Assembly (NCBI GenBank): GCA_028819255.1
Contig: JAPPMB010000147.1
Span: 80,031-144,030, forward strand
Direction of reading: 5' to 3'
Length of the DNA: 64,000 nucleotides
Origin: Bryobacterales bacterium
GTDB taxonomy: Bacteria > Acidobacteriota > Terriglobia > Bryobacterales > UBA6623
Shown here: positions 33,308 through 37,763 of the stretch, in pieces
Layout of the letters: each line of letters starts with the position of its first letter
How positions within the stretch are numbered: position 1 is the first letter of the stretch
Notes under the pieces: generated by a model
Databases searched by the model: none
Told to the model about the DNA's origin: nothing
What the model saw: the letters and a program-made list of their open reading frames with translations, nothing else
Made by a program: the position numbers and the translations under genes

Positions 33308-34480
33308 TCAGCGGTCACCGTCCCGGGCGCAGCCGATCCGACGCATCCGGCCGTCCTGCGTCAGTTCGTACTCGCGGTCACGCCACGCGATTCGCCTGCC
33401 GAAGAGTCCGGCGAACCACATCGCCAGACTGAGCATGTCCTGGATCGGCACGAGCCACCATCGCCGGATTACGAGCCGGTCACCGAGGACGACTCTCCCG
33501 ACTGTCACTGCCGCTGCGAAGCGAAGTGCCGCGCAGGCGCCAAAGACCCACCACGACCATCCCGCCCATGATGCAGCCGGCAGCAGGACCAGGGTCCACG
33601 GCAGCGGGTTCGCGAGCAGCTCGCCCCAGTAGCCGGCCGGGCGCGACCTGCGGGTTGAACGGCGCCACCGGAGGCGGTGCGCGAAGTTCGCAGCGAAGGA
33701 CGCGCTGCCAATCCTGTGCGCGACGACATGGGAGGACAGGCGCACGCCGAAGCCGGCCTCGCGTGCGCGGCGGCCGATCTGGAAGTCCTCGGCCAGATAG
33801 GCTCCAAATGCCTCCCAGCCCCCGATCGATTCGAGGCACGACCGGCGGACCGCCATCGTGGGACCCACCGCGAAGTCCATCGGCGCGAGCATCTGGGAAG
33901 CCAGCACTCCGCTCCAGAACTCCGTGTTCATGCCGAGGCCCTCCAGGCGTGACCAAGGGCTCGGGCCAGGCTCAGCCCGGTAGGGGCACGTCACGACTCC
34001 CACGCCTTCGTCCTGGAACTCCGACGCCAGGTCCCGGAGGAGCGTCGGCTTGGCGAGGATGTCGCTGTCGCTGACGACAAGGATGTCGCCCGACGCGATC
34101 CGGGTCATTTGCGCGAGGGAGTGCACCTTTGCATTCGCGCACGGGGGCTCTCCAACGCTGATCGCGCGGGTGCGCTTCCCCGAGTGGCGGGCTCCCAGCG
34201 ACCGCGCGAGGGCCAGCGCGGGATCCGAGTCCTCCCGGGCTGCGAACAGCAGCTCGAAACTCGGATACTCAAGCTGGAAGAAGCTCTCGAGGTTGCCTGA
34301 CAGACCCGGCTCCGCACCGGCCAGCGGCTTGAGCACGCTGAAGCTGGGCAAGACACCACGGGGCTGCCGCCTGGACCGGCGCCTGCGAAAGCTCCATGCC
34401 GCGACGAGCACGAGGACGTAGTATGCGCAGCCCGCGACGACCACGCAGGCAGCGAGAACCGCGAGCGCGGGGGGTGGCAA
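33308..34480 (-). CDS. GT21-like membrane glycosyltransferase (ceramide glucosyltransferase / HpnI family)
   Basis: It has an N-terminal TM, then SVLKPLAGAEPGLSGNLESFFQLEYPSFELLF, the DSD motif (VVSDSDI), the (Q/R)xxRW motif (HRLRW) and C-terminal TM helices. Confidence 0.75.
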   Translation of the reverse strand: MPPPALAVLAACVVVAGCAYYVLVLVAAWSFRRRRSRRQPRGVLPSFSVLKPLAGAEPGLSGNLESFFQLEYPSFELLFAAREDSDPALALARSLGARHSGKRTRAISVGEPPCANAKVHSLAQMTRIASGDILVVSDSDILAKPTLLRDLASEFQDEGVGVVTCPYRAEPGPSPWSRLEGLGMNTEFWSGVLASQMLAPMDFAVGPTMAVRRSCLESIGGWEAFGAYLAEDFQIGRRAREAGFGVRLSSHVVAHRIGSASFAANFAHRLRWRRSTRRSRPAGYWGELLANPLPWTLVLLPAASWAGWSWWVFGACAALRFAAAVTVGRVVLGDRLVIRRWWLVPIQDMLSLAMWFAGLFGRRIAWRDREYELTQDGRMRRIGCARDGDR

Positions 34481-34487
34481 GGCGCTG

Positions 34488-35294
34488 TCAGGCCTGGTTG
34501 TCTCTCTGGACTCCGCCGTGGTCCGCCGACCCGAACGCGGCCGCCAGTGCCCAGCGTGCTTTCTCGTCCTTTTCGACCTTTCCGTCGCGCAGCTGGACGA
34601 TCCGGCGCGCGTACATCGCGATGTCAGGTTCGTGGGTGACCAGGATGATCGTGTTGCCCTGCTTGTGCAGCACGTCCATCACGCCCATGATCTCCGTGGA
34701 CGTGGCGGTGTCGAGGTTGCCGGTGGGCTCGTCGGCCAGGATGATCGAGGGATCGCCCACCAGAGCGCGGGCGATCGCCACGCGCTGGCGCTGGCCGCCG
34801 GAGAGCTCGGACGGCTTGTGGTACATGCGCTCGGTCAGGTCGACCTGCTGGAGTGCGCGCATTGCGCGCTCGGTGCGCTGCGCCGGCGGCACGCCGGCGT
34901 AGACGAGCGGCAGCTCGACATTCTGCAGGGCGGTGAGGCGCGGCAGCAGGTTGAACGTCTGGAAGACGAAGCCGATTTCCCGGTTGCGGATGTATGCCAG
35001 GTCGTCGTCCGACATGGCGCTGATGAGCTGGCCTGCGATGTAGTATTCGCCTGCCGTCGGCGTGTCGAGCGCGCCGATCAGGTTCATGAACGTGGACTTG
35101 CCGGAGCCCGAAGGCCCCATCAGGGCGACGTACTCGCCATAGCGGATCTCGATATCCACGCCGTTCACGGCGTGGATCTGATGGTCGCCCATGACGTAGG
35201 TCTTGCGCAGGCCGTACGTCCGAATGACGATGTTGTCCTCGAGAAGCTGCTTGCCGAGCGCCACCGGATCCTGGGCTGCGGTCGCTGTTTCCAT
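34488..35294 (-). CDS. MacB/LolD-type ABC ATP-binding protein (NBD only)
   Basis: Walker [35 protein letters not shown] and [11 protein letters not shown] are present. A ~30-aa C-terminal extension follows. Confidence 0.9.
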
Positions 35295-35327: not shown

Positions 35328-36284
35328 CTAGTTACCCATGGGCCGCCGCCCGCGAGTCCAGACCACGACTTCGCAGCGATGGCCCGGACGGATGCTCGCG
35401 TCGGGCGAAGCAAGGCCCAGGACACCCTCGCGTACTGTGAACGGTAGCGGGCCCGGAACTCCGCAGGCCGACCGGACCATCATGACGGCGCCGAGGTCCC
35501 CGGTGCTGGCCTCCAGCCTTGGGAGCGCTGTCCGGACCAGTGTCACGAGCGCGGCGCCCCTGGGGGTCGCCGCGCCCACGGCGACGTGGATCTCGCCAAC
35601 CGTCCCGTCCCACGGGCTCGTCACCACGAAGGTCCCGGGAAGCCGGTCCAGCCTCGCGCGCAGCCGCTCGGCACGCCGCAGCTCCGGCGACTCGCGCTTG
35701 GCGACCGGCTCATTCCGGTCCTGCTCCGCCTGCTCGGCGAGTGCCCTGGCTTCGGCGAGCCGCTGACCGAGCTCGGCGAATTCCTGTTCCTTCTTCCTGA
35801 ACTCGAGGCGCGCGACCAGCCCTCCTTCGTTGAGAGCCTTCCAGCGCTCGAAGTCCTCCCGCGCGGATTCATAGGATTCCTCCAGCTGGCGCAGCGCGGC
35901 CTGTCTCAGATCCCGCCGTTCCGACCTCACGACATCGGCTTTCGACTGGGCGGAGTCCTCCGCGCCACGGAGTCCGGCGATCTTCCGGTCCAGTTCGGCC
36001 TTCGCTTCACCAAGGCCGACGTCCACGAGTTCTACGAGAGGGTCGCCGGCGGCCACGGTGGCCCCCTGGGACGACCGGAGGGCGGTCACGTGGCCCCTGC
36101 GCCGCGTGGTCACCACACTCTCTCGCGTTCCCACGGCCAGAGCCGAGAGCACTGCCGGACGCAGCGGCGGCTGCGCGATGCGGGGCGGCGGGCTGAGGAT
36201 GACCCCCAGCGAGCCGGCCGCCGCCAGGAACGCCGCGGCCGTCGCCCACAGCGCGGGCAGCCTACGTGAGAGCGGTCCCGCCAT
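35328..36284 (-). CDS. short HlyD-like membrane fusion protein
   Basis: It has an N-terminal anchor (LPALWATAAAFLAAAGSLGVIL), a hairpin (GATVAAGDPLVELVD), a coiled coil and VVTSPWDGTVGEIHVAVG. Confidence 0.7.
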   Translation of the reverse strand: MAGPLSRRLPALWATAAAFLAAAGSLGVILSPPPRIAQPPLRPAVLSALAVGTRESVVTTRRRGHVTALRSSQGATVAAGDPLVELVDVGLGEAKAELDRKIAGLRGAEDSAQSKADVVRSERRDLRQAALRQLEESYESAREDFERWKALNEGGLVARLEFRKKEQEFAELGQRLAEARALAEQAEQDRNEPVAKRESPELRRAERLRARLDRLPGTFVVTSPWDGTVGEIHVAVGAATPRGAALVTLVRTALPRLEASTGDLGAVMMVRSACGVPGPLPFTVREGVLGLASPDASIRPGHRCEVVVWTRGRRPMGN

Positions 36285-36311
36285 CGCCTGTGCGGTCCAC
36301 CGGGCCGAGTC

Positions 36312-37763
36312 CTAGCCGATGCCCAGCGCGTCCCAGATCGGGTCCACCCTCCTCTTCACTTCCTCGTCCATCACGAGCACTTCGGGCCACGGCCGGGTGA
36401 AGCCCTCGGAAGCCCACTTGCGCGTCGCATCGATCCCCATCTTCGAGCCGTAGTCCGGAAGGCGGCTGGCGTGGTCCAAGGAGTCGACCGGTCCCATTGT
36501 GAACTGGATGTCCCGCTCGGGATCGATGTTGTTCAGGGCGCGCCACGCGACTTCCGAGTAGTTCTGGACGTCCACATCGTCATCGACGACCACGATGCAC
36601 TTCGTCGAAGACGCCTGTCCCAGGCCCCAGATGGTGTTCATGACCTTGCGCGCCTGTCCGGGATACGACTTGCGGATCGAGACCAGCATGAGGTTGTGGA
36701 AGATGCCCTCCGGCGGCATCGCCATGTCCACGATCTCGGGGGCCTGCAGCCGGATGAGGGGCAGGAAGATCCTCTCGATCGCCTTCCCCATGTAGTAGTC
36801 CTCCATCGGCGGCGGCCCGACGATCGTCGTGGCGTAGACCGGATGCCTGCGCTGGGTGACGCAGTCCACGTGGAACACCGGGTAATCGTCCTCGAGCGAG
36901 TAGTAGCCCGTGTGGTCCCCGAACGGGCCCTCGGTGCGAAGCTCCCCGAGATTGACATGGCCCTCGAGCACGATTTCCGAGTTGGCCGGCACCTCGAGGT
37001 CGACGGTCTTGCACCGGACCATCTCCACGGGCTGCCGTCGAATGAACCCTGCGAACAGCATTTCGTCCAGGTCCGGCGGGAGAGGCAGGATGCCCGAGTA
37101 CATGGTGGCCGGATCGGAGCCGATCGCCACCGCGACATCCATGCGGGTCTCCTTGCCCTGCTTCCGGAGCCGCCGGTAGTGCTCGGCGCCCTGCTTGTGG
37201 GTCTGCCAGTGCATGCCGGTCGTGCGGTCGTCGTACACTTGCAGCCGGTAGGTGCCGCAGTTTCGCTTGCCGGTGATCGGATTGCGCGAAAAGACCATCG
37301 GCAGGGTGATGAACGGACCAGCGTCTCCGGGCCAGCAAGTCAGGACGGGGTAGTCGCTTAGCGAGAACGCCGCTTTCTTCACGACCTGCTGGCAGGGCCC
37401 CGACCGCACGGTGCGGGGGAGGAACTTGCGGATCTCGGCGAGCTTGGTCAGACCCTTCAGCTTTCCCGCAACCCCCTTCGGAACGCCGAGGTCCAGATAT
37501 TCGGTGATTCGCGCCGGAACCTCCTCGATGTCCCCGACCTCGAACGCGATCTGCATCTTCGACATGGAGGCATAGGCGTTGATCAGCAGGGGGACGGCGG
37601 ATCCCTTTGGGTTCTCGAACAGGAGGGCCGGGCCGCCGTTCTTGACGGCACGGTCCGCGATCTCGGAGATCTCCAGATGGGGGTCGACCTCGGCCTGAAC
37701 CCTTTTCAGCTCGCCCGCCCTTTCGAGCGCGGTAATGAATTCGCGAATGTCCCGGTATGCCAT
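36312..37763 (-). CDS. ubiD: UbiD-family (prenylated-FMN) decarboxylase, quinone biosynthesis type
   Basis: MAYRDIREFITALERAGELKRV...GGPALLFENPKGS...GTYRLQVYD...GPFGDHTGYY are UbiD family hallmarks. Confidence 0.88.
   Translation of the reverse strand: MAYRDIREFITALERAGELKRVQAEVDPHLEISEIADRAVKNGGPALLFENPKGSAVPLLINAYASMSKMQIAFEVGDIEEVPARITEYLDLGVPKGVAGKLKGLTKLAEIRKFLPRTVRSGPCQQVVKKAAFSLSDYPVLTCWPGDAGPFITLPMVFSRNPITGKRNCGTYRLQVYDDRTTGMHWQTHKQGAEHYRRLRKQGKETRMDVAVAIGSDPATMYSGILPLPPDLDEMLFAGFIRRQPVEMVRCKTVDLEVPANSEIVLEGHVNLGELRTEGPFGDHTGYYSLEDDYPVFHVDCVTQRRHPVYATTIVGPPPMEDYYMGKAIERIFLPLIRLQAPEIVDMAMPPEGIFHNLMLVSIRKSYPGQARKVMNTIWGLGQASSTKCIVVVDDDVDVQNYSEVAWRALNNIDPERDIQFTMGPVDSLDHASRLPDYGSKMGIDATRKWASEGFTRPWPEVLVMDEEVKRRVDPIWDALGIG

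Follow-up and report, generated by a model that had tools for sequence, protein, structure and literature searches.

Tripartite ATP-binding cassette (ABC) pumps of the MacB type (type VII) include DevBCA-HgdD, the heterocyst glycolipid exporter of Anabaena, in which such a system is genetically tied to glycolipid biogenesis. In Acidobacteria, permeases of this kind without their own ATPase have been noticed before; the ADOP proteins are a recognised family of orphan permeases that was first seen in this phylum (PMC3914696, citing Ward 2009). The corresponding NCBIfam model, TIGR03434, is named 'ADOP family duplicated permease', and a search of the literature on ADOP partners found nothing relevant. 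To our knowledge, hardly any work has been done on lipid trafficking in Acidobacteria. Proteobacteria are the source of the hopanoid transporters known so far, HpnN and the proposed HpnM/S/T (bioRxiv 10.1101/2025.07.29.667474); the hopanoid genes shc, hpnH, hpnG, hpnI and hpnJ have been reported for Acidobacteria of subdivision 3 (SD3; Bryobacter, Solibacter) and hpnK has been reported absent from SD1 and SD3 (PMC5462960). The present study deals with a stretch of 64,000 nucleotides from the metagenome-assembled genome of a Bryobacterales bacterium (assembly GCA_028819255.1, contig JAPPMB010000147.1, positions 80,031 to 144,030), called the window in the following, and with a string of four minus-strand genes in it that encode a UbiD-family decarboxylase, a short periplasmic adaptor, a stand-alone ABC ATPase (nucleotide-binding domain, NBD) and a membrane-bound glycosyltransferase (GT). 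Our data favour, with modest confidence, the view that these genes make up a lineage-specific operon, in which a menaquinone enzyme is combined with one half of a split MacB-type pump, its permease being encoded elsewhere, and with a lipid GT of the HpnI family.

The string consists of the following genes, given in the direction of their reading.
36312-37763, minus strand: UbiD-family decarboxylase, 483 aa, first gene of the conserved string
35328-36284, minus strand: adaptor-like protein, 318 aa
34488-35294, minus strand: ABC ATPase (NBD), 268 aa
33308-34480, minus strand: GT, 390 aa, with a TTG start at 34480

The gaps between these genes amount to 27, 33 and 7 nt. Reading frames and gaps are exactly those described in a first-pass annotation of this DNA, which had been made from the letters alone and had pointed out the tight, operon-like packing; its four domain calls were upheld as well by the Pfam and NCBIfam profile scores and by the fold of the adaptor in Foldseek searches. 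The 7-nt gap between NBD and GT hinges on the TTG codon at 34480 and widens to 43 nt with the GTG at 34444 used in the public gene call (378 aa); the alignment of homologues favours the longer N-terminus. In all four open reading frames (ORFs) the GC content at third codon positions is 0.83-0.89, as is typical of real genes, and the GC content of the window is 67%. A scan for promoters and terminators, otherwise uninformative, detected no terminator-like hairpin on the minus strand inside the cluster, and a convergent gene for methylmalonyl-CoA mutase is located 50 nt past the 3' end of the GT gene. As far as the sequence can tell, the four genes are probably co-transcribed as one operon.

The product of the first gene contains the three domains UbiD_N, UbiD and UbiD_C (Pfam). 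It passes the equivalog model of menaquinone decarboxylases (TIGR03701) with 607.4 bits at a cutoff of 495.9, and reaches 437.9 with the model of the UbiD acting in ubiquinone synthesis (NF008175), which is under the cutoff of 788. By these profile scores it is a menaquinone decarboxylase of the SCO4490/MqnL type belonging to the futalosine pathway and not a generic UbiD. A gene for a UbiE/MenG methyltransferase is situated 10 kb from it.

The adaptor stays below the thresholds of all related sequence families (HlyD_D23 25.7 against 30, HlyD_3 20.9 against 22.2, RND_mfp 34.7 against 94.9, EmrA family 43.7 against 390.8). Its AlphaFold2 model, calculated with 14 homologues, has a predicted local distance difference test score (pLDDT) of 82.8, and Foldseek searches with the model returned EmrA (4tko), ZneB, MacA and MexA at a probability of 1.0. 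The modelled chain comprises a transmembrane (TM) helix at about residues 11-32, a split lipoyl or barrel-sandwich domain, an alpha-hairpin of about 125 residues and a small C-terminal beta domain, with beta strands at 41-88, helices at 89-213 and beta strands again at 218-311; the second half of the lipoyl domain bears an SPWDG motif. With lipoyl, hairpin and beta-barrel domains in place, the protein is, according to the model, a periplasmic adaptor or membrane fusion protein (MFP). At residue 311 the chain ends with its single small beta domain, so that the membrane-proximal domain, through which MacA-type adaptors contact the periplasmic domain of MacB, is missing. The C-terminal domain is marked by the clade-specific motif SACGVPGP and by the cysteines C274 and C304, all of which are invariant. 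A profile search among 1.84 billion representative proteins returned only 22 clusters at 50% identity with at least 122 bits for this short adaptor, and below these followed generic adaptors or MFPs of 400-450 aa, which align over the lipoyl and hairpin parts only.

In the ATPase (ABC_tran 1.6e-33, Pfam), the Walker A, Q-loop, LSGGQ, Walker B and H-loop motifs are all intact. Its best NCBIfam matches are MacB with 257.9 bits and LolD with 233 bits, followed by DarD and FtsE among others, and it remains under every equivalog cutoff (LolD 233 vs 307.75, FtsE 206.1 vs 264.85, DevA 195.8 vs 295.8). It is thus classified by its profile matches as a stand-alone NBD of the MacB/LolD type, and the identity of an ATPase from LolCDE or FtsEX was rejected because the LolD and FtsE cutoffs are not reached. 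Of the hallmarks of a MacB-type (type VII) system, the NBD with intact motifs is present, and an FtsX-fold permease, fused or adjacent, is absent.

The GT belongs to Glyco_transf_21 (PF13506, 2.6e-39). The motifs D138-S-D140, E231-D232 and H268-R-x-R-W272 (DSD, ED and HRLRW) are invariant, and GTs linked to the ATPase and unlinked ones have equal length, identical invariant motifs and no extra domain. Its AlphaFold2 model (pLDDT 91.2, predicted template modelling score 0.89) displays a cytoplasmic GT-A domain that is preceded by one TM helix and followed by interface helices and by two further TM helices at the C-terminus, and its top Foldseek matches are PcManGT, hyaluronan synthase and BcsA. 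In bona fide HpnI, the sugar is N-acetylglucosamine (GlcNAc) and the acceptor is bacteriohopanetetrol (BHT).

The conservation of the string was analyzed by a scan of the GTDB species representatives with the GT alignment, which yielded 80 acidobacterial loci, onto which the proteins of the window were mapped by tblastn. The clade set comprises 28 loci, i.e. 25 species-level Bryobacterales genomes and three metagenome contigs including the window; all statistics on conservation ignore phylogenetic non-independence. The order UbiD-adaptor-ATPase-GT with short gaps recurs across these 28 distinct Bryobacterales loci, hence the neighbourhood conservation across Acidobacteriota, which the first-pass annotation had suggested to check, is found within one clade. 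Compared with the proteins of the window, identities in the clade reach 76-92% for UbiD, which is always directly upstream, 31-61% for the adaptor, 81-92% for the ATPase and 53-77% for the GT. The internal junctions are broken in only 3 of 84 cases, which trace back to two events, an insertion of insertion sequence (IS) elements in L014 and an adaptor deletion in L022, while the flanking junctions (DUF2461 to UbiD and GT to mutase) are broken in 18 of 56 cases (Fisher p=4.6e-6 against the internal ones, shared ancestry uncorrected). The upstream neighbour concerned is the following gene.
41420-42145, minus strand: DUF2461 gene (Pfam DUF2461 5.5e-61), in the ancestral order placed directly upstream of the UbiD gene

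In 22 of the 28 clade loci, DUF2461 is encoded on the same strand 12-285 nt upstream of UbiD; its membership in the transcription unit is uncertain. In the window, the two genes are split by an insertion of about 3.6 kb with lower GC content (0.63 over 38-42 kb), to which the segment 38018-40733 belongs with a Fic/DOC-domain gene (39183-40733) and a hypothetical gene for 206 aa (38018-38638) as cargo.

Outside the clade the picture is different. The 55 other acidobacterial loci encode an orthologous GT of 47-55% identity to that of the window, and none of them has UbiD, the adaptor or a MacB-type ATPase beside it. Instead, threonyl-tRNA synthetase (ThrRS) is found directly upstream of the GT in 21 of the 55. 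A hopanoid context of these outside GTs was considered and rejected, since the genes conserved around them encode ThrRS, a histidine kinase and an extracytoplasmic function (ECF) sigma factor, with no hpn genes. An apparent third lineage with an ABC gene near the GT (L043, L047, L052, L066, L084) was also discarded; the gene in question, an ABC-type gene for 622 aa, is convergent, 2 kb away and non-operonic, and it was judged unrelated, without a domain scan, on the basis of only about 31% identity over the NBD.

A hidden Markov model (HMM) of FtsX/MacB permeases, built from permeases found in related loci, detected no such protein in the 64 kb of the window even at E<=10, which extends the statement of the first-pass annotation that no FtsX permease is present to the whole window. 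Within 10 kb on either side of the cluster, no FtsX permease was found in 26 of the 28 clade loci. One clade genome (L008) has an orphan ADOP-like permease gene at 13523-16078 (851 aa, 600 bits), located 2.4 kb from the cluster and with no NBD within 5 kb. The window itself contains, 3 kb away from the cluster, a second adaptor-ATPase pair without permease.
29044-31103, minus strand: adaptor of 441 aa (RND_mfp 112 bits) and MacB-type ATPase of 245 aa, the two genes overlapping by 4 nt
28232-29043: gap of 812 nt behind this pair, without a convincing ORF; a publicly called ORF of 237 aa has low GC content at third codon positions and no family match

The position of this gap is occupied by PhzF in L004, of which the window holds no remnant. 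A hidden or degraded permease in the window or in the gap was rejected, because the search with the FtsX model remained empty at E<=10. Since the second pair of the window is permease-less as well, the absence of a permease is not peculiar to the GT-linked pair.

The same conclusion is reached with the ATPase orthologues elsewhere in Acidobacteria, which share 72-79% identity with the ATPase of the window. Seven of their contexts (L087-L093) were inspected.
L089, L090, L091, L092, L093: full-length MacA/YknX-like adaptor of 442-467 aa directly upstream of the ATPase, no permease
L088, 3411-8738: PadR, ADOP permease, MFP of 442 aa and NBD in one co-directional run
L087: ATPase orthologue alone

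The adaptors of 442-467 aa possess YknX_C or Beta-barrel_YknX domains, and the ADOP protein of L088 scores 624 bits with TIGR03434 (cutoff 622) and has the 'permease prefix' domain. A dedicated permease regularly placed beside orthologous adaptor-ATPase pairs had been named in the first-pass annotation as speaking against its proposal; such a gene is not always there, ADOP adjoining the pair in one of the seven contexts. Two of these genomes also came up in the GT scan, and in both of them ATPase and GT are unlinked; the two orthologues were found on different contigs of the same metagenome-assembled genome (L092 and L039) and 1.1 Mb apart on a single contig (L087 and L031). The outside contexts and the unlinked GT together indicate that the permease-less adaptor-ATPase pair is an old, widespread and self-standing unit. 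Its joining to UbiD and GT is, judged from gene order, a derived feature of one clade. The idea that the missing permease is something special to this cluster was not borne out, because the ATPase orthogroup occurs without permease in contexts not linked to the GT and because of the second pair in the window. Furthermore, a comparison of 119 ATPase sequences gave average identities of 83% for the clade, 79% for the sequences outside it and 74% between the two groups, with just one near-fixed difference between GT-linked and unlinked ATPases, the conservative exchange I185L. Nothing suggests that the ATPase has changed its partner.

The adaptor behaves differently from the ATPase. Its remodelling to a shorter protein with a new, cysteine-containing C-terminal domain is confined to the clade where the GT link arose. 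In a comparison of the short adaptor with those of 442-467 aa, E values of about 1e-4 over the hairpin were obtained, no better than with the paralogue MFP2, hence the orthology of the two forms rests on gene position. L018, L020 and L023 (about 8430-9185) encode a further shortened adaptor of about 248 aa, in which the SPWDG motif is degenerate and the C-terminal domain is missing. The gene has been deleted outright in L022 (9148-9200), where NBD and GT are still present, and in L014 (5452-8850) two IS copies with DDE_5 transposase genes of identical length have been inserted between adaptor and ATPase.

If the four genes are understood as a lineage-specific operon with half of a split pump, their products might act as follows. 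The UbiD protein would catalyze a late decarboxylation in menaquinone synthesis via the futalosine route and would represent a housekeeping module. Adaptor and ATPase would be one half, periplasmic and soluble, of a tripartite ABC pump of the MacB type (type VII); its four-helix permease of the FtsX type would be encoded elsewhere, with ADOP orphans or other ATPase-less MacB-like permeases as best candidates. ATP hydrolysis by the NBD dimer would power this unlinked permease, and an intact adaptor would build the bridge to an outer-membrane channel. The GT would be placed in the inner membrane and transfer, at its cytoplasmic face, the sugar of a nucleotide sugar onto a membrane lipid. Possibly the product of the GT is also the cargo of the pump. 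Gene order, protein families, folds, conservation and the lack of a permease throughout the ATPase orthogroup are established by the data, and three elements of the scheme are inferred, namely the co-transcription of the genes, a permease from another locus as partner of the ATPase, and a lipid as acceptor of the sugar.

Several observations weigh against this interpretation. The junction between NBD and GT, unbroken throughout the 28 clade loci, and an independent arrangement of permeases and a GT in Terriglobales (see below) together suggest that the link to the GT may have a function and need not be incidental. The assignment of the GT to the HpnI family is a marginal one, as it passes TIGR03472 with 313.4 bits at a cutoff of 310, a margin of only 3 bits, and no hopanoid genes (shc, hpnH etc.) were found among the scanned ORFs of the window. 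L088 is the sole context, one of seven, in which an ADOP permease is physically joined to this ATPase orthogroup, and the ATPase is taken as single-copy in the clade genomes, which is an assumption. Finally, in nine Terriglobales loci (L074, L041, L058, L060, L070, L072, L073, L077, L080) a paralogous GT of the HpnI family, designated GT', is encoded co-directionally behind two to three ATPase-less permease genes of the MacB type. GT' is 35-40% identical to the GT of the window; the HpnI cutoff is exceeded by the Terriglobales GT (347 bits) as well as by GT' (365 bits). In L074 the gap between permease and GT' is 17 nt, and a complete MacB-type set of permease, adaptor and ATPase is found about 5 kb from the GT' unit.
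L074, 1-14836, start, plus strand: three FtsX permeases, adaptor, ATPase
L074, 1-14836, continuation: LssY_C, hybrid histidine kinase, GT; then convergent GT' directly behind permeases

The permeases beside GT' are MacB-like, and their identification as LolCE was rejected for this reason. FtsX genes are otherwise sparse across the fetched flanks of about 1.5 Mb. In two bacterial orders, then, an HpnI-family GT is coupled to one or the other half of the MacB machine, which is suggestive of an export role for the GT product like that of the Dev system. Such a Dev-like exporter of glycolipids or hopanoids, in which the GT product (e.g. BHT-GlcNAc) would be extracted by the adaptor, the ATPase and an unlinked MacB-type permease and brought to the outer membrane, and in which co-transcription would match the supply of the exporter to glycolipid synthesis, appears to us possible and yet rather unlikely. 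It would account for the unbroken junction of NBD and GT and for internal junctions that are significantly steadier than the flanks, and it fits with an adaptor that was remodelled exactly in the GT-linked clade, into a form that lacks the membrane-proximal domain as DevB-type adaptors do; the independent permease-GT' units in Terriglobales, in flanks otherwise poor in FtsX genes, point in the same direction. Against it, the ATPase orthogroup shows identical sequence features and likewise comes without a permease where it stands apart from a GT, and the adaptor is truncated in three loci, deleted in one and separated by IS elements in another. Moreover, 55 acidobacterial loci with an orthologous GT have no ABC neighbour, the scores with the DevA and DevB families remain far under their cutoffs, and our literature search found no link of HpnI or hopanoids to MacB-type pumps.

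The other two explanations concern the identity of the membrane partner and of the ATPase. In the first-pass annotation it was proposed that the GT, or alternatively an unlinked permease, serves as the membrane component of the ATPase. The unlinked permease is the likelier half of this proposal. A polytopic GT that itself acts as the partner of the ATPase, so that ATP would drive the flipping or extrusion of a glycolipid through or alongside the GT without any FtsX protein, could be read out of the missing permease in 64 kb, the distance of only 7-43 nt from NBD stop to GT start without a single separation in 28 loci, and the persistence of NBD and GT in some genomes where the adaptor was dispensable. 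We regard it nevertheless as very improbable. The orthologues of the ATPase are equally permease-less without a nearby GT, and both genes are unlinked within the same genomes; since this ATPase ordinarily lacks an adjoining permease throughout Acidobacteria, the GT probably does not take the place of one. Only the one conservative, near-fixed change distinguishes the GT-linked ATPases, the linked and unlinked GTs are alike in length and motifs with no added domain, and the modelled GT with its three TM helices resembles BcsA, hyaluronan synthase and PcManGT and is unlike an FtsX or other ABC transmembrane domain with coupling helix. We know of no precedent for a GT as membrane partner of an ABC ATPase. 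Hence, the GT half of the earlier proposal is left unsupported by an ancestral permease-less state, an unchanged ATPase, the lack of a new GT domain and a three-helix membrane part that is not of the ABC type. It could also be argued that the ATPase is a housekeeping NBD of the Lol/FtsE type or another NBD not involved in efflux (lipoprotein sorting, mechanotransmission), which came into this place by genome history and is accompanied by an adaptor that is a decaying relic. The very high conservation of the ATPase within the clade and across Terriglobia, LolD and FtsE among its top matches, and the fast evolution of the adaptor with its loss in some genomes would be compatible with this explanation. 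It is nonetheless quite unlikely in our view, because both equivalog cutoffs are missed, because the ATPase outside the clade nearly always comes with a full-length MacA/YknX-like adaptor, which Lol and FtsEX systems do not use, and because the permeases next to GT' are MacB-like and not LolCE.

Collectively, we therefore retain the lineage-specific operon with a split MacB-type half-pump as the interpretation to start from. A wider scenario, which we put forward as a speculation with a rather low chance of being correct, is that Acidobacteria export the product of HpnI-family enzymes, a glycosylated hopanoid or another glycolipid, via a MacB-type pump scattered over the genome, with the orphan ATPase as shared motor. 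Adaptor and ATPase would then be co-transcribed with the GT in the Bryobacterales clade, ATPase-less permeases would be co-transcribed with GT' in Terriglobales, and the conserved orphan ATPase would also be the motor for many ADOP orphan permeases. Were this true, the first genetic handle would be at hand for the role of ADOP permeases and for the traffic of hopanoid-type lipids to the outer membrane in Acidobacteria. A functional link between pump and GT would point to a MacB-type export route for hopanoid glycosides or other glycolipids in this phylum, which is abundant in soils and in association with sponges. If the link is only genomic, we are dealing with an ordinary lineage-specific operon, and the absence of the permease reflects that, throughout the phylum, MacB-type ATPases and their permeases tend to be encoded apart. 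This tendency is under-described, and it provides a testable pairing of adaptor-ATPase units with ADOP or other orphan permeases.

Some further features of the window deserve mention.
10614-14770, plus strand: cobalamin riboswitch (98 bits) ahead of a B12-uptake-like operon with periplasmic binding protein, FecCD permease, ATPase and a truncated TonB-receptor gene
15912-19536, minus strand: third HlyD-like adaptor of 488 aa (18070-19536) without ABC partner, and downstream of it tRNA-Glu (17906-17983) and a STAND/AAA ATPase of 622 aa
21854-26381, plus strand: polysaccharide exporter of Wzm (ABC-2) and Wzt (with carbohydrate-binding domain Wzt_C), followed by a GT2+GT4 fusion protein of 808 aa
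48808-52794, plus strand: protein of 1328 aa with DUF7133, HEAT repeats and a C-terminal cytochrome c domain
57139-59280, minus strand: ORF of 713 aa with good coding statistics and no Pfam match

The truncated TonB receptor (291 aa) consists of CarboxypepD_reg and Plug only and has no barrel; the methylmalonyl-CoA mutase adjoining the GT is a B12-dependent enzyme. The unit of Wzm, Wzt and the GT2+GT4 fusion is also situated beside the cluster in L001 and L004.

Among the described systems that come close, MacAB-TolC shares with the locus the MacB-like NBD, an adaptor folded like MacA and EmrA (lipoyl domain, alpha-hairpin and beta-barrel), and the adaptor gene directly upstream of that for the ATPase. 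The locus differs from MacAB-TolC by having no permease in cis within 64 kb and a separate ATPase, which is fused in E. coli MacB; moreover, its adaptor is TM-anchored and lacks the membrane-proximal domain, no gene for an outer-membrane factor is nearby, and a co-oriented lipid GT follows directly downstream of the ATPase. With DevBCA-HgdD it has in common the neighbourhood to glycolipid biogenesis and, as described for DevB-type adaptors, an adaptor without membrane-proximal domain (PMC8277102). The devB-devC-devA operon, unlike the cluster, includes the permease DevC, and membership in this system was rejected because of scores of 25.9 vs 129 with TIGR02971 (DevB) and 195.8 vs 295.8 with TIGR02982 (DevA) and of the missing permease in cis. 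The GT resembles HpnI in its pass of TIGR03472, its catalytic motifs and its membrane-bound GT-A architecture; unlike typical HpnI it is not clustered with hpn genes, and Terriglobales carry two members of the family, of which GT' scores higher. A separation of subunits as assumed here is known from E. coli, where LptB, LptC and LptA, the ATPase and periplasmic bridge, are co-encoded and the transmembrane subunits LptFG are found at another locus. This is an analogy only; unlike the cluster, the Lpt machine uses an ATPase of another subfamily and a beta-jellyroll bridge in place of an adaptor hairpin, with no homology beyond the NBD. The ADOP and other NBD-less permeases of the MacB type, finally, represent the complementary half in the same phylum, permeases without ATPases; unlike L088, the window holds no ADOP gene, and it is gene context that suggests the pairing of this ATPase with ADOP.

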